From assembly GCA_051887795.1 (NCBI GenBank), contig JBJFAG010000010.1, forward strand, positions 1-25,245: 25,245 nucleotides of DNA, read 5' to 3'. This stretch comes from Candidatus Coproplasma sp. (GTDB taxonomy: Bacteria; Bacillota; Clostridia; Christensenellales; Borkfalkiaceae). The translations under genes and the position numbers were made by a program. Shown here in pieces: positions 8,561 through 25,245 of this stretch. Position 1 is the first letter of the stretch. The number at the start of each line of letters is the position of its first letter. Under the pieces are notes generated by a model. The model was not told where the DNA came from. It did not search any database and saw only the letters and a list, made by a program, of their open reading frames with translations.

Positions 8561-8612
8561 AATATAATCGAGCGGGGCAGAACGATACGCCCTTATCGTA
8601 AAGGTGTAAATT

Positions 8613-8975
8613 ATGAATATTGAAGAGTTTTACAAAAAGTTGGGCGGGGACTACAGCGAAGTTTCCGCACGTTTGCCTAGCCTTACCCTCGTTGAAAGGT
8701 TTATCGGTAAATTTTTGCAGGACAAGAGCTTTGAAGACCTTTCTGTAAGCATGAAAATCGGGGACAGAAAGGGTGCGTTCAGCGCCTCCCATACGCTTAA
8801 AGGCGTGTGTGCAAACCTCGGTTTCGGCACTCTGCGCTCCTCCTCTTCCAGGCTGTGTGAAGAGCTTCGGGGCGAGGGCGAAATCATTTCCGATACCGCA
8901 TACATCCTGATGAACGAGGTGGAAAGGGATTATTCGGTAGTCATTCAGACAATAAGCCAATATTTAAAAAAGTAA
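8613..8975 (+). CDS. Stand-alone histidine phosphotransfer (Hpt) protein
   Basis: 120-aa helical protein with AFSASHTLKGVCANLGF Hpt motif. Confidence 0.9.
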   Translation: MNIEEFYKKLGGDYSEVSARLPSLTLVERFIGKFLQDKSFEDLSVSMKIGDRKGAFSASHTLKGVCANLGFGTLRSSSSRLCEELRGEGEIISDTAYILMNEVERDYSVVIQTISQYLKK

Positions 8976-9018
8976 GTTTACATCAGAGAGATATATACCC
9001 CAAAGCAAGGTAAAACAT

Positions 9019-11598
9019 ATGAGACGTAAAAAGGAAATTTTAGTAGTTGACGATAATGAAATCAACCGTGAGATGCTTGCTGAAATACTCAAGGAGAAAT
9101 ACAGCGTATTGCAGGCAGAAAACGGCCGTATGGCGCTGGAGCTGTTAAAGGGTAAAGAGGGCATAGCGTTAATTTTACTTGACGTTATGATGCCCGTCAT
9201 GGACGGCTATACCTTTTTGGACAGGATAAAAGAGGATAAGGAGCTGTCGCTCATACCCGTGATAGTGCTGACCGAAGGCAACAGCGAGGAGGCGGAGGTT
9301 GCGGCACTTGCGCACGGCGCCACCGACTTCGTTCCCAAGCCCTACCGCCCTCAGGTTATTTTGCACCGTATCGAGAGCATAATAAATCTCAGAGAGACGG
9401 CCGCAATGGTTAACCAGCTCCGCTATGATAGGCTGACGGGCATCTATACGAAGGAGTACTTTTATCAAAAGGCTCTGGAAAAATTGCAGGAAAACCCCGA
9501 TAAAAATTACTGTATAGTCTGCTCCAACATTGAAAACTTCAAGCTGTTCAACGACGTCTACGGCGTGAATACGGGCGACGAGCTGTTAAAGGAGACGGCC
9601 GCTATTATGCGCAAGATGATGGGTACGAGCGGCGTTTGCGGAAGGTTTTCTGCAGACAGGTTTATCTGCCTTCAGGAATTTGAGCAGGAGGAAGAGGACA
9701 GGGCAAACTTCGGCAAGTTGAATATGTCCGTTTCATCCAACATGAAAAAGGTGGTTATGCGTTGGGGCATATACCACATAAGCGACCGCACCGTTCCCCT
9801 TGAACAGATGTGCGACAGGGCTATGCTTGCCGTAAACAGCATTAAAGGTACTTATAATCAATTCTTTGCCGTCTACGACGACGTCCTCCGTGATAAGCTC
9901 TTAAGGGAAAAGGCGATAACCGACGCTATGGAGGGGGCTTTATCGAGGGGTGAGTTCGTCGTATACTTCCAGCCCAAGTACAGCCTTACGGACAATTGTC
10001 TGGTAGGTGCGGAGGCGTTGGTACGCTGGGTACACCCCGTTCACGGCGTAATATCCCCGGGCGTATTTATTCCGCTGTTCGAAAAGAACGGGTTTATCTC
10101 CCGTCTGGATAAATACGTATGGGAACAGGTTTGCCTCAGGCTGAACGGTTGGAAGGAGAAGGGTTATCCCCTCTTACCCATATCCGTCAACGTCTCGAGG
10201 GCGGATATATACAGGCCTAACCTTGAAACCTTCTTTACCGGGCTTATTGAAAAGTACGGCGTGGACCCCTCCTATCTCCACCTTGAAATAACCGAAAGCG
10301 CCTATGCGGAAAATCAGGAGCAGATAATAACCACTGTTGACTGCTTAAGAAATCTCGGGTTCGATATCGAGATGGACGACTTCGGAAGCGGTTATTCCTC
10401 CCTTAGTATGTTAAGCCGAATGAAGCTGGACGAGTTGAAGTTGGATATGAAGTTCGTCCATAACGAGACGGCTAAACCCCTTGAACACAGCATACTGAAC
10501 GACGTTATCAATATGGCGCACAGGCTCAATTTAAAAGTCGTCGCCGAGGGCGTGGAGACGAGGGAGCAGATGCGCAGACTTCAGACGGTGGGCTGTGACT
10601 TTGTGCAGGGCTTCTTCCTTGCAAAGCCCATGCCCGTTGAGGACTTTGAAAAGCTGCTTTTAGTTCAGCGCAAAAGTACTGCCGCTCCCGGCAGGGACAC
10701 TCATTCCGCAGTGCCTGAAAAATACTCCGTAATTATCGCCGACGAGGACTTGAATTTCAGCGGAGAAGCGGGGCTTGCATTCAAGGACGAATACAACGTT
10801 ATTCAGACGGCGGACGCCGACAAGGTCATTGACGCCGTAAACACCAACGGCGAGGCCATAGGCGCAATCGTGCTGAGCATGACTTTGCCCGACGGCGGTG
10901 CGGCTAAGATCATGAAGTGTTTAAGAAGCGAGTCGGGCTATTGGCAGATACCCGTGCTGGCCACTATACCGAGCAGTTCGAGAATGCAATCGCTCCCCCT
11001 TGCTCTGGAGGCGGACGACTTTTTGTGTAAGCTCCATCCCGTTTTCGACCTGAGAAAGAAGGTTCAGCGTCTTGTAGACGAGGCGGTGACGCACAGGCGC
11101 GTAAACGCCCTTTTAAACGAGGCGCACCACGACTTTATGACGGGGCTTTTAAACCGCAGGGGACTTAACGCCGCAATGGAGCAGTTGAGAAAGGAACACG
11201 TCCCCGTTGCCCTCTGTATGTTCGATCTGGACAACCTTAAAAGGGTAAACGATACCTACGGACACGACGTGGGCGACAGAATGATTTCGTCTTTTTGCGA
11301 TCTGTTAAAGCGCAGTACCCGCAGCGACGACTACGTTTGCCGTTACGGCGGAGACGAATTTGTCGTCATCTTAAGAAAGATTGGCGAGCAGGACGCCCTG
11401 AAGAGGGCAAAAGAGATCTGCGAAAGAAGCAGGAAGATAGTGATCAACGAAAGCGTTACTCTTTCGTGTTCGGGCGGCGTGGTAACGTGCGGCGTCGACG
11501 AACCGCCCTCGCTGGAGCTTATCGAACGCGCTGACGAGGCGTTGTATAGCGCAAAGCGCAATAACAAAGGCAGCTGCAACATGTGGCAGAAGGGTTAA
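9019..11598 (+). CDS. c-di-GMP enzyme: REC - degenerate GGDEF - EAL - pseudo-REC - GGDEF
   Basis: REC with VVDD/LLDVMMP/KP; first GGDEF degenerate (SADRF, 9649-9663); EAL intact (EALVRW, EITES, DDFGSGYSS, EGVE, QG); second REC-like domain has Ser (IVLSMTLP) at the phospho-Asp; C-terminal RSDDYVCRYGGDEF with RxxD I-site. Confidence 0.92.
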   Translation: MRRKKEILVVDDNEINREMLAEILKEKYSVLQAENGRMALELLKGKEGIALILLDVMMPVMDGYTFLDRIKEDKELSLIPVIVLTEGNSEEAEVAALAHGATDFVPKPYRPQVILHRIESIINLRETAAMVNQLRYDRLTGIYTKEYFYQKALEKLQENPDKNYCIVCSNIENFKLFNDVYGVNTGDELLKETAAIMRKMMGTSGVCGRFSADRFICLQEFEQEEEDRANFGKLNMSVSSNMKKVVMRWGIYHISDRTVPLEQMCDRAMLAVNSIKGTYNQFFAVYDDVLRDKLLREKAITDAMEGALSRGEFVVYFQPKYSLTDNCLVGAEALVRWVHPVHGVISPGVFIPLFEKNGFISRLDKYVWEQVCLRLNGWKEKGYPLLPISVNVSRADIYRPNLETFFTGLIEKYGVDPSYLHLEITESAYAENQEQIITTVDCLRNLGFDIEMDDFGSGYSSLSMLSRMKLDELKLDMKFVHNETAKPLEHSILNDVINMAHRLNLKVVAEGVETREQMRRLQTVGCDFVQGFFLAKPMPVEDFEKLLLVQRKSTAAPGRDTHSAVPEKYSVIIADEDLNFSGEAGLAFKDEYNVIQTADADKVIDAVNTNGEAIGAIVLSMTLPDGGAAKIMKCLRSESGYWQIPVLATIPSSSRMQSLPLALEADDFLCKLHPVFDLRKKVQRLVDEAVTHRRVNALLNEAHHDFMTGLLNRRGLNAAMEQLRKEHVPVALCMFDLDNLKRVNDTYGHDVGDRMISSFCDLLKRSTRSDDYVCRYGGDEFVVILRKIGEQDALKRAKEICERSRKIVINESVTLSCSGGVVTCGVDEPPSLELIERADEALYSAKRNNKGSCNMWQKG

Positions 11599-11834: not shown

Positions 11835-12896
11835 TTATAAATTTTCATCAAATAATTTAACTATGCTGTCCATCAGCTCGCCGTTGACCTGGCTGTACAA
11901 GGCGTGGTCTACGGTTGAGTAATAGTCGGCCTTTTCCTCATAAGTCAGCTTTCTGCCCTTTTGCTTTTCCAAGGCGAGCAAGCCGTCCTTAACCTGCAAT
12001 TGGTATTCCTCTGCCTCCGCCGAATGCCATATTCCCGTATGGCTGCCCTGCAACCCTTCGCCCACGTAATAGGTGACAAAAGGGTTGGTTATCTCGTCCT
12101 TGTGGGCAATAATCGACTGCTTTTCAAAGTTTATGGTCTTGTCCGTCTTACCGTGTGCCACAAGCACGGGTACGTTTGATTGGTTAATCCCCTTAATTGC
12201 GTTGCATTTGGTGTAGTCGTCGAAGATGAGCTTCTGGTACATATTGAAGAAGGGTTCGGGGATTCTGCCGATTACGCCTGCGTACTCCTCCGCCTTTTCC
12301 GTCATAAGCATACAGGCGTCGTGCATTGCGGCAATCGAAGCGCAGGCCTTAACGCCGTCGCAGAGGGAGAGGACGGACGTTGCGGCGTAACCGCCCCAGC
12401 TATGCCCTATGAGGAAGAGGGGCATATCAGACAGCGACTGCACGCTTTTAATGTGTTTAATCGTCCCCTCCAAGTCTATCAGGGACTGGCACATACCGAC
12501 AAGGTCGCTGCCCTCCGATTCGTAAGTTCCCTGACAGTTGTAGGAAAAGACGCTGTACCCCGCATTGACCATATGCATGATAATGGGCAGGTAATCGTCG
12601 CCGCCCGACTTCATTCCGTGGACCATTACGACTAACCCCTTGTTTTCCTCCGAGGCATAGTAGTAGCCCTTTAGCTTTACGTCGTTAACCGTATAGTAGA
12701 ACTCGGACCGCAGCAGTCTGTCCTGAACGCGTTCATAGCAGTATTCGCCTGGCGTCAGGGCGTAATCGGGGCGTTCAACCTTGGGGAACAGGGCCTCGTA
12801 GGCAATAATAGTTGATGCGGCAGTCGCAACGTTAACGCCCAGTGCAGCCGCAAGCAGCCCTATCAGCACTTTCTTTTTCTTTGGACTAATACGCAT
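11835..12896 (-). CDS. Membrane-anchored/secreted alpha/beta hydrolase (lipase/esterase-like)
   Basis: Basic plus hydrophobic N-terminus (KKKKVLIGLLAAALGV), VVMVHG oxyanion region, GHSWGG nucleophile elbow, HGKTD acid, and a downstream His (SHTG). Confidence 0.85.
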   Translation of the reverse strand: MRISPKKKKVLIGLLAAALGVNVATAASTIIAYEALFPKVERPDYALTPGEYCYERVQDRLLRSEFYYTVNDVKLKGYYYASEENKGLVVMVHGMKSGGDDYLPIIMHMVNAGYSVFSYNCQGTYESEGSDLVGMCQSLIDLEGTIKHIKSVQSLSDMPLFLIGHSWGGYAATSVLSLCDGVKACASIAAMHDACMLMTEKAEEYAGVIGRIPEPFFNMYQKLIFDDYTKCNAIKGINQSNVPVLVAHGKTDKTINFEKQSIIAHKDEITNPFVTYYVGEGLQGSHTGIWHSAEAEEYQLQVKDGLLALEKQKGRKLTYEEKADYYSTVDHALYSQVNGELMDSIVKLFDENL

Positions 12897-12933
12897 TTCA
12901 TACTCCTATTATGTCTTAAAAGATATGGTTTTA

Positions 12934-13929
12934 TTAGAACTCGCAGTCGACGTTTTGGTGTATTCTTAAAAGCTTTAAATCCATTGAGGCAACCGAGAGT
13001 ATATAGCCTCCGTCAGCGTTTAAGCGCATACTGCGGGTGGTAAACTCCTCCGTCTCTATGGAGTCGGGGGAAAAGGCTCTGCCGCCCTGCATTTTAAAAA
13101 TGCTCTCCTTCTGAGTCCATTTCTCTGCAAGGTAAACGGCTTTGTCGGCCTGGGCGGCGTACTTTTCCTCTTCGCTTCGCGTCAGGAATTTATGCCTTAT
13201 ACTCTCCAGCCTGTCTGTTATCCTTTCAACGTCCACGCCGACCGCCCTGCGGCTTACGCAGACTGCAACTATTTCTCCGCAGTGGGAGAGGGAGAAGCTG
13301 CAGCCGTCCGTAACCCATCTGCCGTTCTCCTCCTTGGCAAAATCCGTCTTTTTAGCGCTTAAGCCGAAGGTATGGAACAGGGCGTATTCAAGCAGCTTCC
13401 AGGCGCAATACTTTTCCCGCTGAACCCTTTCGTTGGTACAGCCTTCAATCTCCTGCCAGCGCTGCTTGCAGGATAACTTTTTCATCTTCAGCCCGTCGGG
13501 AATTTTGGCCGTGTACACGTCAACAATGGGCAGGTTATGGAACATAGCCCGCACGGCGTCTGCCTGGGTACACTTCTTCTCACCCATAACACATTCGTAG
13601 GCGAAGTGTTCGCAGTTGTTATACAGCATATTATAGCCCTTTTCCCCGATGCGGGAGCGGGCCTTCCGCACTGTGATTTCACGGGGGATACGGGCCTTTA
13701 ACTCCCTTTTATCCAGCACCGCCGTCTCTAAAAAACCGCCCTGTAAAAATCCGTCCACGTCAGAGGCGCAGACCTCCACGTCGCAGTCCTTTACCGACAG
13801 TCTGGCGGAAGGGGCAAGCCCGAACTGAATAACTTCCCCGTCGCTGACATATACCCCGTAATGATAGATGTTGCCTATCTTAACGCGGATCATATCCCCG
13901 CTTTCAGGCTGAATCATCTGCCAGTTCAT
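12934..13929 (-). CDS. LRAT/PLAAT-like (permuted NlpC/P60) acyltransferase fused to Sfp-type 4'-phosphopantetheinyl transferase
   Basis: N-term: GDMI...YHYGVYV (H23), EVIQF (Q35), YNMLYNNCEHFA (C106). C-term: FSLSHCG, VGVDVE, WTQKESIFK PPTase motifs. One uninterrupted frame. Confidence 0.85.
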   Translation of the reverse strand: MNWQMIQPESGDMIRVKIGNIYHYGVYVSDGEVIQFGLAPSARLSVKDCDVEVCASDVDGFLQGGFLETAVLDKRELKARIPREITVRKARSRIGEKGYNMLYNNCEHFAYECVMGEKKCTQADAVRAMFHNLPIVDVYTAKIPDGLKMKKLSCKQRWQEIEGCTNERVQREKYCAWKLLEYALFHTFGLSAKKTDFAKEENGRWVTDGCSFSLSHCGEIVAVCVSRRAVGVDVERITDRLESIRHKFLTRSEEEKYAAQADKAVYLAEKWTQKESIFKMQGGRAFSPDSIETEEFTTRSMRLNADGGYILSVASMDLKLLRIHQNVDCEF

Positions 13930-14183
13930 TGCTCTACGTGCGCCTCTATATAGTCGAGTACGTCGCCGACGCAGCCAAAATCGCTGAAGCTTACGTTGTC
14001 AAAGCGGATGTTGAAAAACTCCTCGATAGCGATTACAACGTAGATAATGCCCACCGAATTTAACCCGAGGTCGGTAGTTAAGTTGGATTGTTCCGTACAG
14101 TTATCTAAATTTACGGAATCTCCGAGCGCCAACGCTAAAATTTCCTTTAATTTTTCGGCTATTTCCAATCTCTTACTTTGCAT
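13926..14183 (-). CDS. Acyl carrier protein (phosphopantetheine attachment domain)
   Basis: 85-aa acidic protein, DLGLNSVG (Ser attachment site, N instead of usual D), AIEEFFNIRF helix II pattern; ATGA overlap with LRAT-PPTase. Confidence 0.85.
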   Translation of the reverse strand: MQSKRLEIAEKLKEILALALGDSVNLDNCTEQSNLTTDLGLNSVGIIYVVIAIEEFFNIRFDNVSFSDFGCVGDVLDYIEAHVEQ

Positions 14184-15678
14184 TTTGGTTTCTCACAATT
14201 TTTAAACTTGCTGAACGGATGAAGTCGTTTTCGCGAATGACAATCTTGTTTATCCTCTGTTCGGAGGGGAGGGTTGCGTTAACCTTGTTTATCTCTTCAC
14301 GGAGATAGCTTTCGGGGTCTGCAATCTGCATGGAGGCGAGCAGCGCCTTTCTGGGATAGACCTCCAGCACGAGGCCCGAACGCCCCGGTTCGTGGTTTTC
14401 GTAGATAAGACAATCCTGAATGGCGTCAATCTCGCCGAACTTAGCCTCTATTTCCGCAGGGGAAATGTTTTCGCCCGTAGGCAGAACGATAATCTCCTTC
14501 TTTCTTCCCACTATGTATAAGTAGCCCTCTTCGTCAAGGCGGACGAGGTCGCCCGTCTTAAACCAGCCGTCCTCATAGGCGCTGGCGTTTTCTTCGGGTT
14601 CGCCTACGTAGCAGTCCATCATGTTTATGCCCTTAAGCCAAAGCTCTCCGTCCACGATTTTATAGTCCATACCGTCGTAGATAAAGCCGACGGAAGCGGG
14701 TTTTTTCAGCGCTTCGGGGTTACCGCTTACAAGGTTAGCGCTCTCAGTCAAGCCGTAACCGGGCAACAGCGCAATGCCCAGCTTGTCGTATTCGTGTACG
14801 AGGTAGGGGGCAACCGTTGCGGCGCCGCAGATAATCGTCTTAATGTCGGGTCCGAGCATGTTTCTTTTGAACTGCTTGGAGAGGTTGAGCGCCATTTCTG
14901 CAAGAGCGGGTACCACTACGATAATGGTGGGTTTGAATACCGCTATGTCACGGAACATATCCTTATTGTTACGGCAGATGAAAATTGCACTGCCCGTGTA
15001 AAGGCTGGTTAAGAGGTTACGCACCAACCCGAACACGTGGGTTAAGGGCAGAACCAGCATATATCTCTGACCGAACACGTCCTTAATTCCGTAGCAGCCG
15101 TTCTTCACGCCGCGCATAATCGCCTGGTTGGAGAGGAGTGCGCCCTTGCTCTTACCCGTCGTGCCGCCCGTAAAGATTACGGTGCAGGGGGCCTTGCCCT
15201 CAACATTCTGGCAGGGGGTGGAGTCGTCTCCCCTGACGCTATCCTCAAACAGCTTGAAGTCAGGGCGCCTTTGCTGTAAGAACTTAACCTTCTCTGCAAG
15301 GGCGGGGCTGTAGATTAAAGCGTTCAGCGCATATTTCATAGAGCAGCCGAAAACAGTCGTCTCGTCGAGCTGCGGGGGGATTAAAACGGCAACCGCACCG
15401 ATGGTGGTAACCGCTAAATAGGCCGTTACAAAGGCAGCGCTGTTGGGGATATAAATGCCAACGTTATCCCCGCTCTTTACGCCTTGAGACAGCAGGAAGC
15501 TGCGCATCTTTGCGGCCTCATCTTCAAGCTGAGCGTAGGTAATCGAGCGGTCGTTATCCACAACCGCAACGTCGTCCGCATATGCCTCAACGCAGTGTAA
15601 CCACATCTCGCTTACGCTTGCATAGTCGACTATTTTAGCATAGGTATCCGCATCGGTATACTTTTCAAATACGTTCAT
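14173..15678 (-). CDS. Long-chain acyl-AMP ligase (ANL superfamily; acyl-CoA/acyl-ACP synthetase-like)
   Basis: FTGGTTGKSKG P-loop, LPLTHVFG, GYGLTE, WFKTGD, GRKKEII..GENISPAEIE, terminal SLKIVR Lys. ATG15678 has an AAGGTGA SD; the ORF track uses GTG15687. Confidence 0.9.
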   Translation of the reverse strand: MNVFEKYTDADTYAKIVDYASVSEMWLHCVEAYADDVAVVDNDRSITYAQLEDEAAKMRSFLLSQGVKSGDNVGIYIPNSAAFVTAYLAVTTIGAVAVLIPPQLDETTVFGCSMKYALNALIYSPALAEKVKFLQQRRPDFKLFEDSVRGDDSTPCQNVEGKAPCTVIFTGGTTGKSKGALLSNQAIMRGVKNGCYGIKDVFGQRYMLVLPLTHVFGLVRNLLTSLYTGSAIFICRNNKDMFRDIAVFKPTIIVVVPALAEMALNLSKQFKRNMLGPDIKTIICGAATVAPYLVHEYDKLGIALLPGYGLTESANLVSGNPEALKKPASVGFIYDGMDYKIVDGELWLKGINMMDCYVGEPEENASAYEDGWFKTGDLVRLDEEGYLYIVGRKKEIIVLPTGENISPAEIEAKFGEIDAIQDCLIYENHEPGRSGLVLEVYPRKALLASMQIADPESYLREEINKVNATLPSEQRINKIVIRENDFIRSASLKIVRNQNAK

Positions 15679-15683
15679 GTTTT

Positions 15684-16349
15684 TCACCTTTTATCCTTTA
15701 CATATTTATCATAGCGAGCTTTAAGCTCTTCTTCTCTTTGCTGTAATTGCAGGTTAATCGTCTCAACCTCTTTCATTGAAGGCAGCCTGCCGTCAAAGTT
15801 GATTTCAACGGGGTCGCCGACAACTGCCACGCGGCGCTGCCACCACTTGTTAATCTTGTTTATGTAGACGGGAACTATGGGCTTATTTGCCCTGCATGCC
15901 ATAAGGATAGCCCCTGCCTTAAAGGGCATAACGCCCTCGGCCTTTTCGTTGACCTGCCCTTCGGGGAATATAACCACGGCTTTGTTTTCCTGCAATCTTT
16001 CGCACACTGTATAAAAGGTACTCATGTTGAAATTATCCTTATCTACCATAATGCAGTGCATCTGGTTGAAAAAGAACCTCTTCAATTTAGTGTTATACAG
16101 GTTTTTTGTGGCTATACAGTTTAACCTACGCCGCCAGAATACGCAGTGGACAACTATGGGGTCGGTAAAGCCAACGTGGTTTACCGCCGCTAAAAATCCG
16201 CCTTTGATTTTAGGGCGTTTGTTTAAATAGATAATCTTCGGGCGCATCCAGATCAATGCGGGGATTGCACCCGTAACCTTTACGAAGTCGTAGATAAAAT
16301 TACACGTTCTTCTTTTCTTTTTCGTTTTGCATTTGTCTTTGGAGCTCAT
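15684..16349 (-). CDS. plsC: Lysophospholipid acyltransferase (PlsC family) 2
   Basis: NHVGFTD (HX4D), FPEG, FKAGA, PIVPV motifs. Confidence 0.88.
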   Translation of the reverse strand: MSSKDKCKTKKKRRTCNFIYDFVKVTGAIPALIWMRPKIIYLNKRPKIKGGFLAAVNHVGFTDPIVVHCVFWRRRLNCIATKNLYNTKLKRFFFNQMHCIMVDKDNFNMSTFYTVCERLQENKAVVIFPEGQVNEKAEGVMPFKAGAILMACRANKPIVPVYINKINKWWQRRVAVVGDPVEINFDGRLPSMKEVETINLQLQQREEELKARYDKYVKDKR

Positions 16350-16959
16350 CTTTTAAATCTATCACCTTTTCTCTCAATCTCTTACAAATTGCGTCCAGGT
16401 TCTCCTTTTCGCTCAACTTTTCGTCATACCATTCCCGCACGTCGATGGGGGTGCCTATGATTACTCGCGCCCGCTTATTGTTGAAGTACTGCCCGTCGGT
16501 GTACACGGGAATAACGGGGGCGCCGCTCTGCAGGGCCATATATGCCACGCTGGGTTTAAATTCCAGCGGCTTCTCCTCGTCGGGGAGCGCCAGGCGGGAT
16601 TCGGGGTAAATTTCCACCACGCCGCCCTTGTCAAGTATTTTTTCCGCCTTTGACAGGAAGGAAAAATCGTGGGTGTTGCGGTTGACCTTTATACCGCCAA
16701 GCAGCTTTAAAAGCAGCGTCATGATAAAGTTCTTGCTATACAGCACCTCCGCCATAAGGCAACGCAGCGTCCTGGTCCAGAACACGAACATCATAACGGC
16801 AAAATCCATTATGGATTGGTGGTTGGGCATGACTATTGCCTTACCTTTTATTCTACGTCCCTGTACCTTTTTATCTTCATAGTACACCTTGGTACGGAAG
16901 ATGAAAAGGGGGGCGGGGAAGCCTGTAATTTTAAAAAACCAATGTGATAAAGAGTACAT
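16300..16959 (-). CDS. plsC: Lysophospholipid acyltransferase (PlsC family) 1
   Basis: NHQSIMD (HX4D), IYPESR (block III variant), APVIPV; TGATG overlap with MFS stop. Confidence 0.88.
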   Translation of the reverse strand: MYSLSHWFFKITGFPAPLFIFRTKVYYEDKKVQGRRIKGKAIVMPNHQSIMDFAVMMFVFWTRTLRCLMAEVLYSKNFIMTLLLKLLGGIKVNRNTHDFSFLSKAEKILDKGGVVEIYPESRLALPDEEKPLEFKPSVAYMALQSGAPVIPVYTDGQYFNNKRARVIIGTPIDVREWYDEKLSEKENLDAICKRLREKVIDLKDELQRQMQNEKEKKNV

Positions 16960-18932
16960 CAGCCGTTCGCCTCTTCAATGGGGGTATGTTCTGCCAATAC
17001 CGTCTGGCTTTCGGCATTTACGGTATACAGCTTATTTATATAGTGCTGTAAAAGTGCAAGGGCAACTACGTTTAAGGGCAGAAGGGGCAGGATTACCGCA
17101 AAGGCTATCATCACAATGCGTGCGGTGCCAAGCTTTTTGCCCTGCAATACGCCGACGCCGTCCGCCTTTGCCTTTTCAGCGATAATGCCCGAAAGTTTTA
17201 ATATGGTTGCAACGGAGAAGAAGGGGACGAAGCAGGAGGCGAGCCACCATGCCCAGGATTTGAGCTTTGCACCCGTAACTTCCTTTATGGATTTAAATAG
17301 GAAGCCCAGCCAGATAAATCCGAAGATAAAGCCCGAGAGGATTGACAGGCCTACCTGTACGAAGATTATTTCACCCTTTTCTTCCTTTTCATGGAATTTT
17401 TCGTCCCTTTCTATCTGCGATAAATCAATGTCGGGGTGAAGCTTTTTCAGCTCTTTTGCGACGTTTTCAGGCGTGTAATCTCTCGGCATTTTCCTTGCGA
17501 GAATTGCGCCTAAAATACAGGTAAACGCCACGATGAAGGGGACTAAAATAGTGCCGAGGTTAAACACCTGGGTGTTGGGCGCGCCGAACGCCTCCGCCGC
17601 AACGTCTATTGCAGAGACGACTTCGCCGTCCACAATCTTACTCGTCGCCCACTGCACGCCGGGAACGCCTTTGCAGATGAACAGGTTTTTAATCAGCTCA
17701 TAGATGAGCGAACCTGAAATTGCGCTTGCAATGGAGGTGCAGACCGCATTGCCTGCAAAATACATTGCGGAGTGGTTTTTGTGTGTAAGCTTTTCCTCCA
17801 CGCTGGAGATCTGGGCGGTGATATGATAGGGCATCATGAAGAATGCGCCGATTGCCCAGCTGCCGCAGAAACCGCCCAGACAGCCGAGGACGTATTGCAG
17901 TACCTTGTTGTCGGGGCCTACCACGAAAATCGAGCCGAAGAAGAAGTTTAAAATTGCAATGGCAAAAGCAATCAGGCAGGTCTGGTAGGTAAACCTTATT
18001 CCCTTTTTGGCCTTAAGCTTGTTGAACAGGTACAGCATAATGGGTACGGGTGCGAAAGCGCAGGTGTTGAGAATTGCCATCTCCATGCCGTTCATGCCCA
18101 TACCGCCCAGGATAAGCACGTTCATACTTACAAGGAACATCTGCAGCCCGAAGTAGGTACAGCAGTTTACAAGCTCCCACCGCATAAACACCTTGTTCCT
18201 GAAGGTGAGGCTTAAGCTCTCCTTTAAGGTAACCTTTTCAGGCTTAGCTCCCTGATTTTCGGGGTAATTATACTTGGCGCCCTCTTTAATCATGAACAGG
18301 GGAATTACAAGCGTAAGCATTAAGGGGGAGCAATAATATATAAACTCGTTGATATGCAGCTTTGCACCCGATAAAATTACGGGGACAAGCGCATATACCA
18401 CGCAGTAGGAGATGGTGTCGAAAAAGGCCTTATAGCCCGAAACACGCAGACGCTGCGGCTCGTCCGAACAGGTGGTGGACAGCGAACCGTAGAAGGAGAT
18501 GGTACCCATCGTGTAGGTGGCGAAGAACACTAACGCCCAGAAGATAATCCATATCGTATTGACAAGCTGATTTTCAACCCCGCCAATGGGCAGCCAGCAC
18601 ATTACGTAGGAGAGCGTCATGGGCAGAAGGCATGCTAAAATAGTAGGTCTGCGCCTGCCCCATTTTGTCGACAGCGTATCGGTTACGTGTGCAAAGGGTA
18701 TATCGATAATACCGTCGAACGCCTTGGCAACGGCGTACAGCGCGGGGAATACGGCAGGCAGTATAAAGCAAGCGCCGCTTGCAAACTTCTGAAACTCCCC
18801 TGAGTTTACAAGTGCGGAGGGATTGATTGCGTCCGTGAAGTATGCTCCCATCAGGACCATTAAAAAGTTGGGCCCGAAGCAGGAGAAGGCAAACACAAAC
18901 TCCTTCCACTTTTTGTCTAGTGATTTAACCAT
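16959..18932 (-). CDS. MFS transporter, GPH/MelB (MFS_2) family, with C-terminal membrane extension (DUF4234-like)
   Basis: FDGIIDIPFAHVTD and TKWGRRRP are characteristic of GPH symporters. About 12 TM core, then a charged linker and a ~120-aa hydrophobic extension ending ALLQHYINKL. Confidence 0.8.
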   Translation of the reverse strand: MVKSLDKKWKEFVFAFSCFGPNFLMVLMGAYFTDAINPSALVNSGEFQKFASGACFILPAVFPALYAVAKAFDGIIDIPFAHVTDTLSTKWGRRRPTILACLLPMTLSYVMCWLPIGGVENQLVNTIWIIFWALVFFATYTMGTISFYGSLSTTCSDEPQRLRVSGYKAFFDTISYCVVYALVPVILSGAKLHINEFIYYCSPLMLTLVIPLFMIKEGAKYNYPENQGAKPEKVTLKESLSLTFRNKVFMRWELVNCCTYFGLQMFLVSMNVLILGGMGMNGMEMAILNTCAFAPVPIMLYLFNKLKAKKGIRFTYQTCLIAFAIAILNFFFGSIFVVGPDNKVLQYVLGCLGGFCGSWAIGAFFMMPYHITAQISSVEEKLTHKNHSAMYFAGNAVCTSIASAISGSLIYELIKNLFICKGVPGVQWATSKIVDGEVVSAIDVAAEAFGAPNTQVFNLGTILVPFIVAFTCILGAILARKMPRDYTPENVAKELKKLHPDIDLSQIERDEKFHEKEEKGEIIFVQVGLSILSGFIFGFIWLGFLFKSIKEVTGAKLKSWAWWLASCFVPFFSVATILKLSGIIAEKAKADGVGVLQGKKLGTARIVMIAFAVILPLLPLNVVALALLQHYINKLYTVNAESQTVLAEHTPIEEANG

Positions 18933-18964
18933 TTTTTATATTCTCTCTTTAAATTATTCTCTGG

Positions 18965-20899
18965 TCAGAGCGTAGCTTGCTTTTTTATTACGTCGTAAAA
19001 ATTCTGCGGGGTAAACAGCTTTTCGTCTTCGGGGAAGGAGACTTCGACGTGCAGTTCGGATTTTATGGTGTCAAGCAGTACGAAATAGTCTAAACTGCTT
19101 CCTCCTAAATCGGTAAAGAAATCGGACTGCATTCCCACGTCTTTTTCGTCGATCTGCAGCGCCGTAGCAAAGCACTGCCTGATCTTTTCCTCCAATGCGG
19201 ATAAAACGCCCTCCACGTAGCCGTTTGCGTTGTCTATATCGATTAGGTTAAAACCGCCTGCGGAGTATCTTTTTGCAACCTTTTTTCTGCTGAGTTTAAA
19301 ATCTCCCGGGCCTAAAAGCTCGTCTGCGGTTATGGCAAGCTGCGTAACCACGTCCCTTAAGTTGTTTTCTTTAAGTTTTTCGGCTAACTGTCCGTAAACT
19401 TTTTGAAGCTTTTGGGCAGAGAAGCAATTTTCAATACTTGCAAGCAGGGTGGGCGTTCCGCTTTGGTCTGCAAACAGGCACAGGTTTTTTATGTCGGGTA
19501 CGAATAAACTTGCCTCTATCAGTTCGGGGTTGAGGTTCTCGCCGTTTTTGCAGATAATCAGATCGTCCTTTCTCCCCAGGTTATAGTACCTGCCCTTGCG
19601 TACGCAGACGAGGTCCTTGGTTTCAAACCAGCTGTCAAAGTCGGTAATCAGCTCCTCTTTTCCGTAGACAATGCGGGAGGCCATAGCCCTGCTTCTTACC
19701 AGCAGCTCGCCGTCCTTGGACACGCTGTACTGAGTGGTAGAGAAGGGTGCGCCTATGGAGCCCAAGTTCCTCACTCTGGCGCTCGACGAAGTCTCGACGG
19801 AGGTAATGCCCACTTCTGTCATGCCGAAGCCGTTGGCCATATGGTAACCTATGCCGTTGAAAAAGCGCAATACCTCGCCCGATACGGCGCTGCCCCCCGT
19901 AATTAAAAACTTAATGCTGTCCCCGAATATATTCTCCCTCACCTCTTTGAAGAGGGGTTTTGCAAGCAGCTGGCCGAACCTGCCCGTAGCGTTTACAAAG
20001 TTCAGCGCTCTGCAGAATTTGTTATAGGTCTTTTTGCCCCTCTCTTTAATGGTGCGCATGGCCTTTTTATGTACCGTGTTCCATACAAGGGGTACGGCAA
20101 ATATATGGGTAACCTTATGCTTTTTAATGGTGTTCACCAGCGTCTGGGGGTTCATATCTTTTAAAAACACAAGCGTACGGGAGAAGAAGGTAAACCAAAG
20201 GTATACGGCCGCAAACCCGAAGATATGGTAGAAGGGCATGGCTGCAAGCAGCTTTAATTCCCCCTCGTAATGCTCCTTGAAACGGGGACAGTTTTTAATT
20301 ATCTCCGCACTGCTGCAAATCTGGTGATAGAAGTTCTCCGCAGTATATGCGCACAGCTTTACCGAGCCAGAGGTCCCCGACGACATGAAAAGCACTTCGT
20401 CGCCCCAGACGTCGGGAGTATATTCCCTTCCGCAATCCTTCTCAAAGATTTTATCGGCTGAAAAGGTAGGCACGCCGAAGCTCTGCCCGTCGGATACTAC
20501 TGCGGCAACGCCGTGTTCGGTAAGCGCCTGTTCCAGGACGTTTACGGGCAGACGGGCGTTTAATAAAAGAGGACGGTAACCGCACATAAGAACAGACCAG
20601 AAGGTCTGCAGCCATGCAAGGGAGTTCTGCATATGTAAGCCGATCAGCGAACCCTTTGCAATACCTTTAAAGGCGTCGCTGAAAGCGGTTGCCACCGTCT
20701 TAATCTTATTATCACACTCCCCGTAGGTCACTTTTTTTATGCGATAGCCGTCCGAATATTCTGCAATGACGTTTTCTCTTTCGGAGAACATAAAGTAATA
20801 CAGAGCTTTAAAATCCCTTTCCGACGATTTATAGGCATTGAGCTTGTGTTCGATATACTCATCTACGTCGGAAAAACCGCCAAGGTTGGTTAATTTCAT
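18965..20899 (-). CDS. Acyl-AMP ligase with fused C-terminal carrier domain (A-T didomain)
   Basis: FMSSGTSGSVK P-loop, MPFYHIFG, GFGMTE, WFETKD, GRKDDLI..GENLNPELIE; C-terminal DFFTDLGGSSLD carrier Ser motif; GGAGAG SD. Confidence 0.88.
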   Translation of the reverse strand: MKLTNLGGFSDVDEYIEHKLNAYKSSERDFKALYYFMFSERENVIAEYSDGYRIKKVTYGECDNKIKTVATAFSDAFKGIAKGSLIGLHMQNSLAWLQTFWSVLMCGYRPLLLNARLPVNVLEQALTEHGVAAVVSDGQSFGVPTFSADKIFEKDCGREYTPDVWGDEVLFMSSGTSGSVKLCAYTAENFYHQICSSAEIIKNCPRFKEHYEGELKLLAAMPFYHIFGFAAVYLWFTFFSRTLVFLKDMNPQTLVNTIKKHKVTHIFAVPLVWNTVHKKAMRTIKERGKKTYNKFCRALNFVNATGRFGQLLAKPLFKEVRENIFGDSIKFLITGGSAVSGEVLRFFNGIGYHMANGFGMTEVGITSVETSSSARVRNLGSIGAPFSTTQYSVSKDGELLVRSRAMASRIVYGKEELITDFDSWFETKDLVCVRKGRYYNLGRKDDLIICKNGENLNPELIEASLFVPDIKNLCLFADQSGTPTLLASIENCFSAQKLQKVYGQLAEKLKENNLRDVVTQLAITADELLGPGDFKLSRKKVAKRYSAGGFNLIDIDNANGYVEGVLSALEEKIRQCFATALQIDEKDVGMQSDFFTDLGGSSLDYFVLLDTIKSELHVEVSFPEDEKLFTPQNFYDVIKKQATL

Positions 20900-21105: not shown

Positions 21106-21134
21106 TTGACAACGGGCCGATTGGGTTATATAAT
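21106..21134 (+). promoter_or_regulatory. Perfect-consensus sigma-A promoter of cat-TIR unit
   Basis: TTGACA(21106-21111)-17 nt-TATAAT(21129-21134). Confidence 0.85.
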
Positions 21135-21187: not shown

Positions 21188-21850
21188 ATGCAGATTATAG
21201 ATATTCAGACGTGGAAGAGAAGAGTTCCCTACCTGAACTTTATCAATTACACCAACCCCATATTCTCGCTTTCGACACGGTTGGACGTAACCGCGCTGTA
21301 CGATAGCTGCAAGAAAAGGGGTACGTCGTTCTTTACCGACTTCATGTTCATAGCCGTCACCTGCCTTAACTCTGTTGAGGAGTTCCGCCTTCGTATAAAG
21401 GACGGAAACGTCGTGCTTTACGACAGTATAAGTCCTAGCTATATCGTCATGTCGGACGACGGCGTAATAGTCACGTGCCGCAGTGCAAGCTGTGCCGACT
21501 ATGCAAAGTTTTACGAAAACGCCCGCCGTGATGCGGAGCTGGCAAGGACCAACAAAAAGACCAAGGAGTTTAACGACGGTTCAAACGACGTCTACTATAT
21601 CTCGTGTATGCCCTGGACGGATTTCACCTCGGTGACAAACCCGTACGATTTGAAGGACGCCGAAGCGAGCAGTATACCCCGCCTGACCTGGGGCAAGTAC
21701 ACCGAGGAAAACGGCAGGAAGAGGTTGACAATGGATATAGCCGCACATCATGCGCTTATCGACGGCGAACCCATCTGCAGGGCATTCAACAAAATTCAGT
21801 CCGCCATGGACGATCCCGACAAATTCTTTGCAGAACATACCGCACAATAA
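21188..21850 (+). CDS. cat: Chloramphenicol acetyltransferase (type A CAT) family O-acetyltransferase
   Basis: 220 aa; IDIQTWKRR start, ISCMPWTDFTS, IPRLTWGKY, HHALIDG catalytic motif; GGAGG SD. Substrate is not provable from sequence. Confidence 0.8.
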   Translation: MQIIDIQTWKRRVPYLNFINYTNPIFSLSTRLDVTALYDSCKKRGTSFFTDFMFIAVTCLNSVEEFRLRIKDGNVVLYDSISPSYIVMSDDGVIVTCRSASCADYAKFYENARRDAELARTNKKTKEFNDGSNDVYYISCMPWTDFTSVTNPYDLKDAEASSIPRLTWGKYTEENGRKRLTMDIAAHHALIDGEPICRAFNKIQSAMDDPDKFFAEHTAQ

Positions 21851-21874
21851 ACAGATGATTAAACAGAGGTAAAT

Positions 21875-23218
21875 ATGAAGGATAAAATTTTTATAGCCTG
21901 GAGCGGCTCTAACCTTATTGCTTCAAAGATCAAATCCATACTTGAAACAAAAAACTACAAGTGTACCATAGGCGGTAACTCCGACAACAGCTCTACCTAC
22001 TCTTCGGTAGGCGATACGGTAATCCAGCAGATAAAAAACTGCAATCAGGCGATTGTAATCTTCCAGAACAGGGCGGACGGCAAGGTGAGCAACAACCTGT
22101 TCTTTGAGCTGGGGTACGTGCTTTCGATGTACGGCCAGCAGAAGATACACTGCGTAAAGAGGGCGGACGAGGAAGTAGTGCTGCCTTCCGACTTCGATAA
22201 TTCCTTCGTTGAGCCCATAGTATGCGACAATGACGAGCAATTTGTAGAGGGTATTTTAAAGTACTTCTTTGCCCGTCAGAAGATGTCTATAAATCAGAAC
22301 AAGATGCTGCTGATTAACAACCGCTATCTTATGCACGACTATATTCAAAGACATTTTTCGGAGCAGGGGTCTAAATGTTCGGACTACGAATTGGCGCAAT
22401 ATATCCTGTTCTATATGCAGGCCGCGCAGATGTTCGGCGACGAGGCAAAGGTGTGCAGGGAGCTTAAGCAGTTCAAGGACGACTATCATTCGTATTTTTC
22501 GGACGAGCTGGCAATAGCCGTCGACATTGGCATATCCTACTTTGAATTTTCACAGAACATTCTCATGCGGCCGGACGGGGAATTTTACGTTGAACGCAGC
22601 GTGTTCCGCCGTTTCAGGGACAGCTATATCAAATGCAGGGAAGATTTAGGCGAGGACGACACGGGTATGTTCAGCGAGTGGGCCTACACCTTCATCTCTC
22701 AAAGGCTCAATTACGCCTATATGCTGTTTACCAACAATCCCGAACTGACTGAAGAAAAGTTGGTTAAGAATATCGAACTGAGTAAGGAATGGGGCTTTAC
22801 CGCTTTGAAGGACGTGGAGAGGTTGGAGAGCTATGCGTCGATAAAGGATAACAACGACCATAAGGGCATACTCTCGCTGTTCAGGGCATACCTATACAGA
22901 AATCTGTTCGTCTGCAGCAGAAAACTGCACGACGAAGAGGGGGAGCTGGACTGGCTTATAAAGAGCAAGAAGGAGCGGACCTCGCTTAAAAACAACTTTG
23001 AAATAGGCAGCATAGACTCCCAGCTATACGATAATTTCGCCATGGAGTACTACCTTATCCTTGTGGAATATCTGCACTATGCGGACAGGCTCGGTCTGGA
23101 CGAGGACGACGTTGACGACTACAAGGACGAGATAAAGTGCTATATCGATAAATTCACAAAGCAGGTCAATCACAGCAAATATATCGACCGTATAGCCTCG
23201 CTTTTGAACAAACTATAA
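21875..23218 (+). CDS. TIR-domain protein (CAP12/Pycsar-type nucleotide-binding TIR) with ~300-aa helical C-terminal domain
   Basis: KIFIAWSG beta-A, CNQAIVIF beta-C, SNNLFFELGY with putative catalytic E78, and LPSDF, matching the NVxFElG...lPSD pattern of this TIR clade; GAGG SD. Confidence 0.72.
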   Translation: MKDKIFIAWSGSNLIASKIKSILETKNYKCTIGGNSDNSSTYSSVGDTVIQQIKNCNQAIVIFQNRADGKVSNNLFFELGYVLSMYGQQKIHCVKRADEEVVLPSDFDNSFVEPIVCDNDEQFVEGILKYFFARQKMSINQNKMLLINNRYLMHDYIQRHFSEQGSKCSDYELAQYILFYMQAAQMFGDEAKVCRELKQFKDDYHSYFSDELAIAVDIGISYFEFSQNILMRPDGEFYVERSVFRRFRDSYIKCREDLGEDDTGMFSEWAYTFISQRLNYAYMLFTNNPELTEEKLVKNIELSKEWGFTALKDVERLESYASIKDNNDHKGILSLFRAYLYRNLFVCSRKLHDEEGELDWLIKSKKERTSLKNNFEIGSIDSQLYDNFAMEYYLILVEYLHYADRLGLDEDDVDDYKDEIKCYIDKFTKQVNHSKYIDRIASLLNKL

Positions 23219-23253
23219 TTACAATCTATATCCTGATTTCATATATTTACGTG

Positions 23254-23281
23254 GCGGAGTCTGTTTGCAGTCTCCGCTTTT
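23254..23281 (+). terminator. Intrinsic terminator after TIR gene
   Basis: GCGGAG-t-CTG-tttg-CAG-t-CTCCGC followed by TTTT. Confidence 0.7.
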
Positions 23282-23327
23282 AGTTTGCGGTCAATCTTAA
23301 TTACGGTGACTTTTTATATTGATTTTG

Positions 23328-23356
23328 TTGATATTTTATTACAAATGTTGTATAAT
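23328..23356 (+). promoter_or_regulatory. Sigma-A promoter of final gene
   Basis: TTGATA(23328-23333)-17 nt-TATAAT(23351-23356). Confidence 0.7.
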
Positions 23357-23384: not shown

Positions 23385-25245
23385 ATGGGAAAGGTTGATA
23401 AAGGAGAATTTAATAATTCGATAAGAGAAGATAACGTATTCTCCGAGTACAAGCCTTTCAGCGCTGAAAGGTACTATTCGCCTGAAAGTGCCAAATCTCC
23501 TGAGGAAACGGCTTCTTTTAACGAGTCGTTTAATAACGACGGCGGGACTGCCAATGGTAAGGAGCAGCAGTCTGCCGATGCAAACGAACTTCAGAAGCAG
23601 TACGATAAAATAAGGGAGTCGGAATCCTCGCAGACGGGTGAACCATCTTCAACCCCTTCTATGCCCTCGTCGGGGGCAGAGGGCGGCCAGGCTGCGTCAG
23701 GTACCGCCCAGACTGCGGCTACAGTTTCAGGCAGTGCCGCCACGGCGGGCGGTGCAACAGCGGGTGCAACAGTTGCGGCGGCGGTCGTCATCGTCTCATC
23801 CGTAATTTCGGGCGGTTTCATCTCCGATTTCACCAGCCATATAAACAGCTCTGCGGGCATGGATTACGTCGCCATCACCGTGGATATGGACGAGCTTTTA
23901 TCTCAATCCGATAAGAGCTACGGCTTAACCTCCCAGAACTTTTCAATCGAGCTTGACGCGGGCAACTCCTCCCGTAAAATTCAACTTATAGACGGCATAC
24001 ACAGCTATCTATTAACGGGGTTACAGCCCGAAAAAACTTATACATACAACCTGATATGCAACAATCCCCCGCTTGGCAGTAATTCAAACTGCTATTCCAA
24101 GACGTTTACTACGCTCAGTACGGGTGCGCCCGTCGCCGTCTATGACGAGCTGAACAGCTTTGTCACCTATGACGAGGTAACTCAAACCGCTACGGTCGGT
24201 TACAGCGTATACGTCTCGGACTATGGCGGGGTTTTTGATAGTTACGCCTTCTATATTTGCAGCAGCGAGCAGACCGATTTATCTGACGTTAACCGCGTAA
24301 TATATGCCGACGAAACGCTTGGCGAGGACAATTATTTCACCGGCGAGGCGGTCGGTATAACCGATAACGAGCTGTACCTCTACGTCGTGGGCGAAAACAG
24401 CGTGGAGTCGGCAGAACTGTTCTCGCTTAAATTGACGCTGGACCTGCCAGAAGAGTGGCAGACGCCTAAATCCCCCGCCTTTGAAGTCGACGAGGGCGAG
24501 GAAGTTGTAACAACCCTGCCCGACAGCATTTCAGTTGGCGGTGCATTGACTGATTTTAATAAAGACTTCACCTACTTTGCATATATTACGCAGTATGCCG
24601 AAGATGGAACCACGCTGGTTGAAAGACAGGAAGCGGGGTTAATAACAGATCCTGAAAATATGACTTATAGTTTAAACGGTGAGGCATATTACGGGGTTAA
24701 GACCTTTAAATACGTAATCTATGCAGACGATTTGGTAGTATACGAGAGCGGAGAAAAGCAGTTTACTGCAAGCCAGGCGTTTGGGGCAACCTATAACAAG
24801 GTGCAGCCCGCAGACGCTTCTATAGAATATAGTGCAAGCGGAGTAACCATAACTGTTGACACTGGCTTTACCTCGGATTATAGCAATTACGAATATAAAT
24901 TAGTAGTAACCAACTCTTTAGGCGAAGTGTTTGGCCAATACCAAGGCACGGGCGAGGCGGTTATTGAAATTACAGACTATATAGGCCTTGACGAAATCAA
25001 CTTCACATACTACGACCTCGGCACGTTCGCAGACGGCGAGCAGACGCTCGGCGAACATACCACCACGCCTATTACGGGGCAGGCATACTTTGTAGTTGAC
25101 GAAACCGCAGAGGATATCACTGCCCAGCCCGATAGCATAAGCGTTAGCGGTAAGTTAACAGACCTTAACGAAAACTATACCTATACCGCCTACGTAACGC
25201 AGTATAACGAGGACGGCACGGCGTTAGTTGAAAGCGACGAAGCGG
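23385..25245 (+). CDS. Large acidic membrane-anchored surface protein with FN3-like domain and internal repeats (partial, 3' end outside window)
   Basis: Manual translation from ATG23385 (MGKVDKGEFNNSIREDNVF...) stays open for 620 codons to the window end. Hydrophobic VAAAVVIVSSVISGGFI (~23772-23822), LTGLQPEKTYTY FN3-like motif (24012-24047), repeat at 609-nt spacing. The start codon lacks a clear SD. Confidence 0.8.
   Translation, partial: MGKVDKGEFNNSIREDNVFSEYKPFSAERYYSPESAKSPEETASFNESFNNDGGTANGKEQQSADANELQKQYDKIRESESSQTGEPSSTPSMPSSGAEGGQAASGTAQTAATVSGSAATAGGATAGATVAAAVVIVSSVISGGFISDFTSHINSSAGMDYVAITVDMDELLSQSDKSYGLTSQNFSIELDAGNSSRKIQLIDGIHSYLLTGLQPEKTYTYNLICNNPPLGSNSNCYSKTFTTLSTGAPVAVYDELNSFVTYDEVTQTATVGYSVYVSDYGGVFDSYAFYICSSEQTDLSDVNRVIYADETLGEDNYFTGEAVGITDNELYLYVVGENSVESAELFSLKLTLDLPEEWQTPKSPAFEVDEGEEVVTTLPDSISVGGALTDFNKDFTYFAYITQYAEDGTTLVERQEAGLITDPENMTYSLNGEAYYGVKTFKYVIYADDLVVYESGEKQFTASQAFGATYNKVQPADASIEYSASGVTITVDTGFTSDYSNYEYKLVVTNSLGEVFGQYQGTGEAVIEITDYIGLDEINFTYYDLGTFADGEQTLGEHTTTPITGQAYFVVDETAEDITAQPDSISVSGKLTDLNENYTYTAYVTQYNEDGTALVESDEA

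Follow-up and report, generated by a model that had tools for sequence, protein, structure and literature searches.

The stretch analysed here is contig JBJFAG010000010.1 from assembly GCA_051887795.1 of Candidatus Coproplasma sp., and the subject is an open reading frame (ORF) at 21875-23218 on its forward strand. The whole contig, 25.2 kb long (25,245 nucleotides), is referred to as the window; the source is a metagenome-assembled genome of 1.86 Mb that is 82% complete. The ORF encodes a protein of 447 aa, called TIR-TPR below, and the evidence supports its assignment as a TIR domain of the CAP12/Pycsar clade, with its catalytic glutamate, fused to a helical domain of the tetratricopeptide repeat (TPR) type that is not STING. 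The gene comes second in an old unit of at least two genes that moves horizontally; the first gene of the unit encodes an enzyme resembling chloramphenicol acetyltransferase (CAT). An earlier note, made from the letters of the window, had described an orphan, single-gene and self-contained system. That part of its interpretation does not hold for this copy, as a CAT-like partner is conserved and co-diverges at ~50 of 66 loci; the TIR clade, the helical fusion and the absence of a cyclase, which it had also proposed, do stand. The features of the unit in the window are as follows.

21106..21134, forward strand: sigma-70-type promoter of the bicistronic unit, TTGACA-17-TATAAT (12/12).
21188..21850, forward strand: CatA-like O-acyltransferase of 220 aa, the partner gene (PF00302, E 7e-29).
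21749-21751, forward strand: H188 codon of the CAT-like gene; the catalytic H188-x3-D192-G193 is intact.
21875..22276, forward strand: TIR domain (aa 1-134), CAP12/Pycsar clade, from PF10137, structural matches and the invariant F77, E78 and G80.
22106-22108, forward strand: codon of the putative catalytic E78.
22277..23218, forward strand: TPR-type helical domain (aa 135-447, stop codon included), from the domain model, the PlcR match and conservation.
23253..23286, forward strand: intrinsic-terminator-like hairpin and U-run closing the two-gene unit (dG -16.8 kcal/mol, z -3.06; 0 of 200 shuffles fold equally well).

The association of the two genes was followed in 59 loci, taken from GTDB representative genomes only, and in 13 further regions from the bacterial family to which the window belongs. 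The presence of CAT was scored per locus using tblastn and HMM searches; one locus, L044, is marked 'noCAT' in the tree through an over-extended start and yet carries CAT. A CAT-like gene lies directly upstream of TIR-TPR on the same strand in ~50 of the 66 loci, with gaps of -77 to +79 nt. This linkage is kept in all eight loci that carry distant paralogues (20-32% identity), and the pair is also present in copies from Bacteroidota and from a gut archaeon. At two of the eight, in two genomes of the window's bacterial family, a single CAT precedes a tandem of two diverged TIR-TPR paralogues (L061:6745-10481 and L062:6392-9949). Pairwise identities of CAT and TIR-TPR correlate with a mirror-tree r of 0.78, a value reached by none of 999 Mantel permutations. 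In the tree, linkage to CAT is ancestral and has been lost four to five times.

Seen from the side of CAT, homologues of at least 33% identity are found in 16 of 200 sampled family genomes, and in 14 of these 16 they adjoin a TIR-TPR gene; weaker CAT-like matches are scattered elsewhere in the family genomes. Residues H188, D192 and G193 are invariant in 48 partners. The enzyme is conserved and co-diverging in about three quarters of the loci, and down to 20% identity, so that the unit comprises two genes or more. The CAT-like partner is a dedicated enzyme and no incidentally cotranscribed resistance gene. It has the full-length PF00302 fold and the catalytic His-x3-Asp-Gly of CatA, the type A chloramphenicol acetyltransferase. 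In contrast to CatA, its sub-family is tied to the TIR-TPR gene and not to resistance elements, and it falls under the NCBIfam cut-offs of CatA-like families 1, 2 and 3. The annotation 'cat' at this position should not be read as a chloramphenicol-resistance gene.

In the window itself, a ribosome-binding site, GGAGGT, lies ~5 nt ahead of the CAT start codon and the spacer between CAT and TIR-TPR, which is exactly 24 nt (21851-21874), contains another. The gene downstream of TIR-TPR has its own promoter, at 23328-23356. The earlier note had named a cotranscribed cat gene here: the 24-nt gap and a terminator-like hairpin are present, but the neighbour is CatA-like only, with 121.1 bits against the 270-bit cut-off of the NCBIfam chloram_CatA equivalog.

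Each half of the pair also occurs without the other. First, an 11-member clade spread across five phyla is without CAT, and several of its members are flanked by divergent genes. Solo forms of TIR-TPR are thus real; the window's copy lies outside the solo clade. Second, two loci have CAT and no TIR-TPR (L072:4421-6834, reverse strand, and L073:4825-7350, forward strand). In one of these, CAT is followed by an ADP-ribosylglycohydrolase that is split over two ORFs and sits in the place of TIR-TPR, a small pointer to ADP-ribose chemistry; in the other, a GNAT-CAT fusion is followed by a NagA-like amidohydrolase. In addition, one CAT gene beside an intact TIR-TPR carries an in-frame TAA (G175:C13:85426-86085), which may reflect a decaying partner or an assembly error.

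The order of the genes invites comparison with toxin-antidote pairs. Here, TIR-TPR would be a constitutively toxic NADase or maker of a toxic nucleotide, the translationally coupled CAT would neutralise its product, and loss of a labile antidote upon infection or plasmid loss would kill the cell. The antidote-first order and tight coupling (gaps of ~0-25 nt or overlaps) resemble type II and type IV toxin-antitoxin operons, and the strict co-divergence, the dedication of a CAT sub-family to TIR-TPR and the in-frame stop in the CAT of one genome fit as well. On the other hand, 11 solo TIR-TPR genes persist without CAT, some of them flanked by divergent genes, and CAT-only loci exist. Addiction modules are common on plasmids and phages, yet searches there did not find this module, and we know of no enzymatic antitoxin from the CAT family. 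Taken together, a toxin-antidote pair is improbable.

More than 300 full-length relatives of ~447 aa were collected, and all named sources of these are gut or rumen metagenomes. The TIR-TPR gene is present in 12 of 168 high-quality genomes of the window's family, where it occurs in 5 of 23 genera, and in 4 of 350 high-quality genomes of the class. Copies are found in Bacillota, Bacteroidota, Actinomycetota, Mycoplasmatota and one Methanomassiliicoccales archaeon. With 61% identity, the copy of this archaeon falls inside the 4-member clade of the window's protein. This patchy spread is that of an accessory unit transferred horizontally.

In a Pfam scan of the protein, PF10137 (CAP12-PCTIR_TIR) matches residues 4-108 with an E value of 1.9e-11 and 44.4 bits against a cut-off of 24.7, and the domain is present in all relatives. 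The motifs F77-E78-L79-G80 and L103-P104-S105-D106 are invariant or nearly so across the family; F77, E78 and G80 show no variation even at 20% identity, in the case of E78 across 46-68 sequences. The TIR pattern with FE78LG and LPSD that the earlier note had read in this ORF is accordingly confirmed by both the PF10137 match and the motifs. An AlphaFold model of the whole protein, built with 40 homologues, has a pLDDT of 87 and a pTM of 0.84. The best structural match of its N-domain is the TIR domain of SfSTING (Z 12.5, rmsd 3.5 Å, 27% identity), followed by weaker matches to the MilB CMP hydrolase (Z 11.2) and a deoxyribosyltransferase (Z 10.3), and also to RCL. NCBIfam gives no match to the protein, a family profile finds nothing among PDB sequences at E 1, and no system model of PADLOC-DB v2 matches the whole protein, for which PADLOC returns weak matches to TIR domains only (PycTIR, 3.3e-5, and PDC-S35).

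The remainder of the protein is all-helical in two AlphaFold models, one of the whole protein and one of the domain alone, and STING, SAVED and cyclic nucleotide (cNMP)-binding domains are absent from it by Pfam scan and structure comparison, as the earlier note had proposed for STING and cyclic-nucleotide-binding domains. Modelled alone, the 313-residue domain (pLDDT 93, pTM 0.91) forms a TPR-type superhelix. Its top structural match is the TPR domain of PlcR, with a Z of 16.1-16.4 over ~220 residues (223 at Z 16.1), an rmsd of 3.8-3.9 Å and 9% identity. Generic TPR proteins score ~2 Z units lower, but a Z of ~14 is often reached by helical repeats through chance alone. Foldseek against the PDB gave LGN-type TPRs only and nothing at E <=0.001, and distant paralogues have weak Pfam TPR matches. 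With the helical domain alone as the query, 74 clusters were retrieved from 1.8 billion representatives, nearly all of the same TIR-TPR architecture. In one case, on a 4-kb contig, the TIR domain is replaced: a 990-aa protein (L060:936-3908, forward strand) has a DEAD/Helicase_C (Cas3-like) SF2 helicase fused to the helical domain, from residue ~166 on.

Conservation is unevenly distributed over the protein. The start of the helical domain, residues 135-190, is the most conserved stretch, with 63% mean pairwise identity, compared with 56% for the TIR domain, 34% for the TPR body (aa 191-447) and 44% for the CAT partner. Within the TPR domain, the polar and aromatic residues H160, E172, Y180, Y339, R342, N343, R368, E391 and Y392 vary little or not at all, and this holds with paralogues of 20% identity included. 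Such a pattern would be easier to reconcile with a conserved small ligand, probably an anionic one, than with an interface for a phage protein that evolves fast. A small ligand is favoured because the invariant polar residues of the TPR domain are accompanied by a conserved enzyme partner.

The earlier note had proposed TIR-TPR as a candidate single-gene, self-contained abortive-infection system, in which the helical domain may directly sense a phage protein or another ligand. On this model a recognised phage protein would trigger the TIR NADase, as in DSR2, and CAT would be a bystander. DSR2 is a precedent for a protein that combines an NADase with a helical sensor. The solo clade shows that TIR-TPR can stand alone, the TPR body evolves faster (34% mean identity) than the TIR domain (56%), and its variable surface is possibly compatible with a phage-protein interface. 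Against this stand the conservation and co-divergence of CAT, both for the window's copy and for about three quarters of its relatives, the invariant polar residues, which indicate a conserved ligand, and the lack of a defence-island context. A single-gene sensor of this kind is, for these reasons, very improbable.

Membership of TIR-TPR in known systems that use the same TIR clade was considered next to these data. It shares the PF10137 TIR and its conserved catalytic glutamate with Cap12/TIR-STING and TIR-SAVED of the cyclic-oligonucleotide-based anti-phage signalling systems (CBASS) and with PycTIR of Pycsar, effectors in which a fused C-terminal sensor gates the enzyme. However, the C-domain of the 447-aa protein is a TPR superhelix and its partner gene encodes an acetyltransferase. 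The TIR domain is C-terminal in PycTIR and in the PADLOC TIR effector model (model positions ~157-268), whereas it is N-terminal in the window's protein. In line with the earlier note, which had seen no CD-NTase or PycC cyclase in the window, neither the CD-NTase family PF18144 nor the class III cyclase family PF00211 was found there or elsewhere in the genome, which is 82% complete, and both are outside the 25 commonest Pfam families among the 138 flanking genes of the relatives. Membership in CBASS or Pycsar was rejected, as there is neither a cyclase nor a cyclic-nucleotide sensor.

The RRNPP receptors PlcR, Rap and AimR also pair an N-terminal effector with a C-terminal TPR ligand sensor, and Rap and AimR are, like PlcR, among the structural matches of the helical domain. 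They differ from TIR-TPR, which has no helix-turn-helix, has only 9% identity to PlcR and occurs in hosts that include Bacteroidota and an archaeon. No small pro-peptide ORF is conserved within 400 nt downstream of TIR-TPR beyond near-identical loci; in the window, the downstream space is taken up by the terminator and the next promoter. RRNPP membership was rejected for want of a conserved pro-peptide gene.

The closest resemblance in overall plan is to proteins of the Tpr type. The 'core Tpr architecture' was reportedly given this name by Burroughs and Aravind in 2020. It is found by itself or together with TIR, YspA, patatin, LSDAT or calcineurin partners (Liu et al. 2023, bioRxiv 10.1101/2023.05.26.542521). 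In the BcTir/Tpr system of Bacillus cereus, BcTpr has an N-terminal glycosidase and a TPR domain, makes an isomer of cyclic ADP-ribose (cADPR) and depletes NAD+ (same source). The type VIII Thoeris effector ThsI, described as 'CMP hydrolase and TPR', is activated by cADPR from the ThsB TIR, and type VIII is especially abundant in Pseudomonadota (Yirmiya et al. 2025, bioRxiv 10.64898/2025.12.03.692087). ThsI and BcTpr thus provide an experimental precedent for effectors that join a glycosidase to TPR. Neither preprint mentions an acetyltransferase partner.

TIR-TPR and ThsI/BcTpr are alike in their length of ~400-450 aa and appear to share a two-part plan. The N-terminal part would be a Rossmann-like N-glycosidase with the fold of the superfamily that unites TIR, nucleoside deoxyribosyltransferase (NDT) and CMP hydrolase; the C-terminal part is a TPR-type domain, for which perception of a nucleotide signal is proposed. 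As with core Tpr assemblies, a few TIR-TPR loci adjoin a gene for a ThsB-like TIR_2 protein or a calcineurin-like phosphoesterase, and solo forms are common in both families. In contrast, the N-domain of TIR-TPR is PF10137 and not of the ThsI type, it is usually paired with a CAT-like acetyltransferase, which a haloacid dehalogenase (HAD) phosphatase may join, and its hosts are gut anaerobes. No TIR_2/ThsB gene lies beside the window's TIR-TPR, and the two TIR_2 genes of the genome are on other small contigs.

Profile comparison with the ThsI family made use of a stand-in that was found through 70 residues of the Yersinia ThsB TIR domain (preprint Table S1). It comes from the Escherichia coli IncP plasmid NZ_CP147111.1 (L075, 1-7114), which carries a TPR-S ('TRAFs-binding') protein and a TIR gene in the type VIII layout. 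The stand-in has the gene order and Pfam content of type VIII and is distinct from the experimentally tested ThsI proteins. Its homologues number more than 3,300 proteins with PF13281 and PF20308, 40 of which were used for the profile. Aligned with this profile by hhalign, the TIR-TPR family reached a probability of 0.2% for the whole proteins, 0.5% for the C-domains and 1% for the N-domains, although an N-x-x-[FY]-E-L-G motif aligns in register in the N-domains at that 1%. Neither PF13281 nor PF20308 was found in the window's protein (Pfam, E 0.1), and the TRAF-binding region of ASK1 matches the TPR domain with a Z of 10.0-10.2, within the noise of helical repeats. Judged by profiles and models, TIR-TPR shares the plan of ThsI/BcTpr and is not a detectable member of their family. 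As a separate observation, the TPR-S and TIR pair of NZ_CP147111.1 adjoins a TIR and DUF4231 pair in the type VII layout, beside a recombinase.

A third gene joins the pair at some loci. A HAD-family phosphatase precedes CAT in 16 loci and in most of these overlaps or abuts the CAT start (-4 or +1 nt); PADLOC gives it a marginal match of 18 bits and finds nothing for CAT. Rarer operonic neighbours include a protein of ~730 aa (c7), a TIR_2 protein (c81), a calcineurin-like phosphoesterase, an IMP dehydrogenase (IMPDH) and a nucleoside hydrolase, the last with a 4-nt overlap. A four-gene variant without CAT has c7, then a 428-aa TIR_2 protein, HAD and TIR-TPR (L029:141-5732, L031:3821-9347 and L074:7077-12603), these being the three loci at which c81 adjoins the module. 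In two further loci c7 directly precedes CAT (L032 and L033), and in one it follows TIR-TPR (L046). The c7 protein (731 aa) has no Pfam or PADLOC match; its relatives in the Atlas are unnamed clusters, one with 39% RyR domains. Kinship of c81 to the helical domain or to TPR-S was rejected, the shared part being limited to the TIR of c81.

TIR_2 proteins make up 4 of the 138 flanking genes scanned and are the only recurrent defence-like neighbour. The enrichment of homologues in defence islands that the earlier note had expected was not seen among these genes. The window's genome has its two other TIR_2 genes at L068:184-1866 (contig C355) and L067:2-1300 (contig C156), with no link to TIR-TPR. 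One of these ORFs encodes 560 aa with a nitroreductase, TIR_2 and BspA-type leucine-rich repeats, and the other encodes 432 aa with TIR_2 and a methyltransferase-like domain.

The company of these enzymes raises the possibility that the unit is a metabolic or detoxification operon. HAD, the CAT-like enzyme and a TIR/NDT-like N-glycosidase would salvage or inactivate a nucleoside- or nucleotide-like gut compound, such as a nucleoside antibiotic or a dietary analogue; the TPR domain would be a scaffold for substrate or oligomerisation, and there would be no immune role. The three conserved genes all encode small-molecule enzymes, and the fold of the N-domain also matches the MilB CMP hydrolase, deoxyribosyltransferase and RCL. 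The occasional operonic IMPDH, nucleoside hydrolase (4-nt overlap) and calcineurin-like phosphoesterase point the same way, as do the metabolic flanks, the high conservation, the hosts, all gut or rumen anaerobes, and the NagA-like and GNAT enzymes that adjoin relatives of CAT. However, by sequence the N-domain falls in the PF10137 clade, in which the members characterised so far are immune NADases, and a large, sensor-like TPR domain with invariant polar residues is atypical of a catabolic glycosidase. Tandem expansion of paralogues, TIR_2 partners and the helicase fusion look conflict-like, and there is no conserved transporter or regulator. A metabolic operon is unlikely on balance, while retaining a serious claim.

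The reading favoured here, tentatively and with a chance that falls somewhat short of even, is a TIR N-glycosidase under the control of a ligand, with NAD+ or a related nucleotide as its substrate. The CAT-like partner would O-acetylate the ligand or the product of this enzyme, HAD would dephosphorylate it where present, and the module would probably serve in conflict with phages or other invaders. An enzyme that cleaves NAD or another nucleotide under ligand control and serves in conflict is plausible. The two genes, joined by a third in relatives, would form an accessory module in which the TIR domain cleaves its substrate through E78. The fused TPR domain would control the TIR domain by binding a conserved small, probably anionic, nucleotide-like ligand. 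Using acetyl-CoA, the CatA-like acyltransferase would O-acetylate either this ligand or the product of the TIR domain and would thereby make, mature or neutralise it; the obvious candidate for acetylation is a sugar hydroxyl of the ADP-ribose type. The HAD phosphatase, present at about a quarter of the loci, may trim a phosphate in the same small-molecule path. The data themselves establish what the domains are, that the catalytic motifs are intact, how the operon is laid out, that the pair has been inherited together since ancient times and that its spread is patchy and horizontal. We infer NADase activity, gating by a ligand, the substrate of the acetyltransferase and a role in defence, and the likeliest role would be that of a conflict system of the anti-phage or abortive-infection type, analogous to ThsI/BcTpr with an acetyltransferase in place of the ThsB TIR.

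Several observations weigh against this assignment to a conflict module. Searches of IMG/VR viral contigs, GenBank phages and PLSDB plasmids found no member of the family, and instead of defence islands the flanks hold mostly housekeeping genes (IMPDH, glycoside hydrolases, phosphofructokinase (PFK) and AraC). Neither CAT nor HAD nor the whole TIR-TPR protein has a model in PADLOC. Between species, conservation reaches 85%, which is unusual in a sensor that faces phages. Homology to ThsI/TPR-S is undetectable, so that the analogy is one of architecture only, and the 11-member clade without CAT implies that CAT is dispensable for the TIR-TPR protein. Finally, the acetylation substrate is a guess, and the ADP-ribosylglycohydrolase neighbour is a single case.

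TIR enzymes and products derived from ADP-ribose have a central part in the immunity of bacteria, plants and animals. In known bacterial systems the TIR domain or glycosidase has as its partner either a TIR or cyclase that makes the signal or an effector that binds a nucleotide. Neither the TIR clade nor the plan of a glycosidase followed by TPR is new. In the literature and defence catalogues searched, the TIR-TPR family, its helical domain and its ancient coupling to a CAT-like acyltransferase are undescribed, and the literature search returned no relevant paper joining TIR, acetyltransferase and phage defence. As the CAT partner is kept down to ~20% identity, across phyla and into an archaeon, the pair suggests that acetyl-CoA-dependent acylation and TIR chemistry are connected biochemically in a way not described so far. 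This could reveal a new modified nucleotide, a new route for gating or detoxifying TIR domains, or a new defence system of gut Christensenellales, which are hard to culture. The boldest version is a long shot: the CAT-like enzyme would acetylate an ADP-ribose-type nucleotide made or sensed by TIR-TPR, and O-acetylation, together with HAD, would create or cancel a second messenger in a system spread horizontally among gut bacteria and archaea. If true, it would be a form of acetylated-nucleotide immune signalling, or a guard circuit, with no described counterpart.

The rest of the window contains three further groups of interest. Downstream of the unit, an ORF at 23385-25244 (forward strand), open at the contig end, encodes a large protein with an N-terminus rich in Ala, Gly and Ser, repeats of ~190 aa and weak fn3-like matches; this is probably a cell-surface protein. 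Upstream, seven co-directional genes at 11835-20899 (reverse strand) form an acyl/lipid cluster that includes an alpha/beta hydrolase, an AMP-ligase, two PlsC-type acyltransferases and a major facilitator superfamily (MFS) protein. One of its members, at 12934-13929 (reverse strand), has an LRAT/NlpC-P60 domain fused to a 4'-phosphopantetheinyl transferase, and another, at 18965-20899 (reverse strand), is an AMP-binding enzyme that includes a carrier (PP-binding) domain of its own. The cluster is an unusual carrier-dependent lipid or lipopeptide pathway. Lastly, genes at 5642-11598 (forward strand) encode a hybrid sensor kinase (dCache-PAS-HisKA-HATPase with two receiver domains), an Hpt protein and a receiver-EAL-GGDEF protein, which constitute a complete phosphorelay into c-di-GMP turnover.

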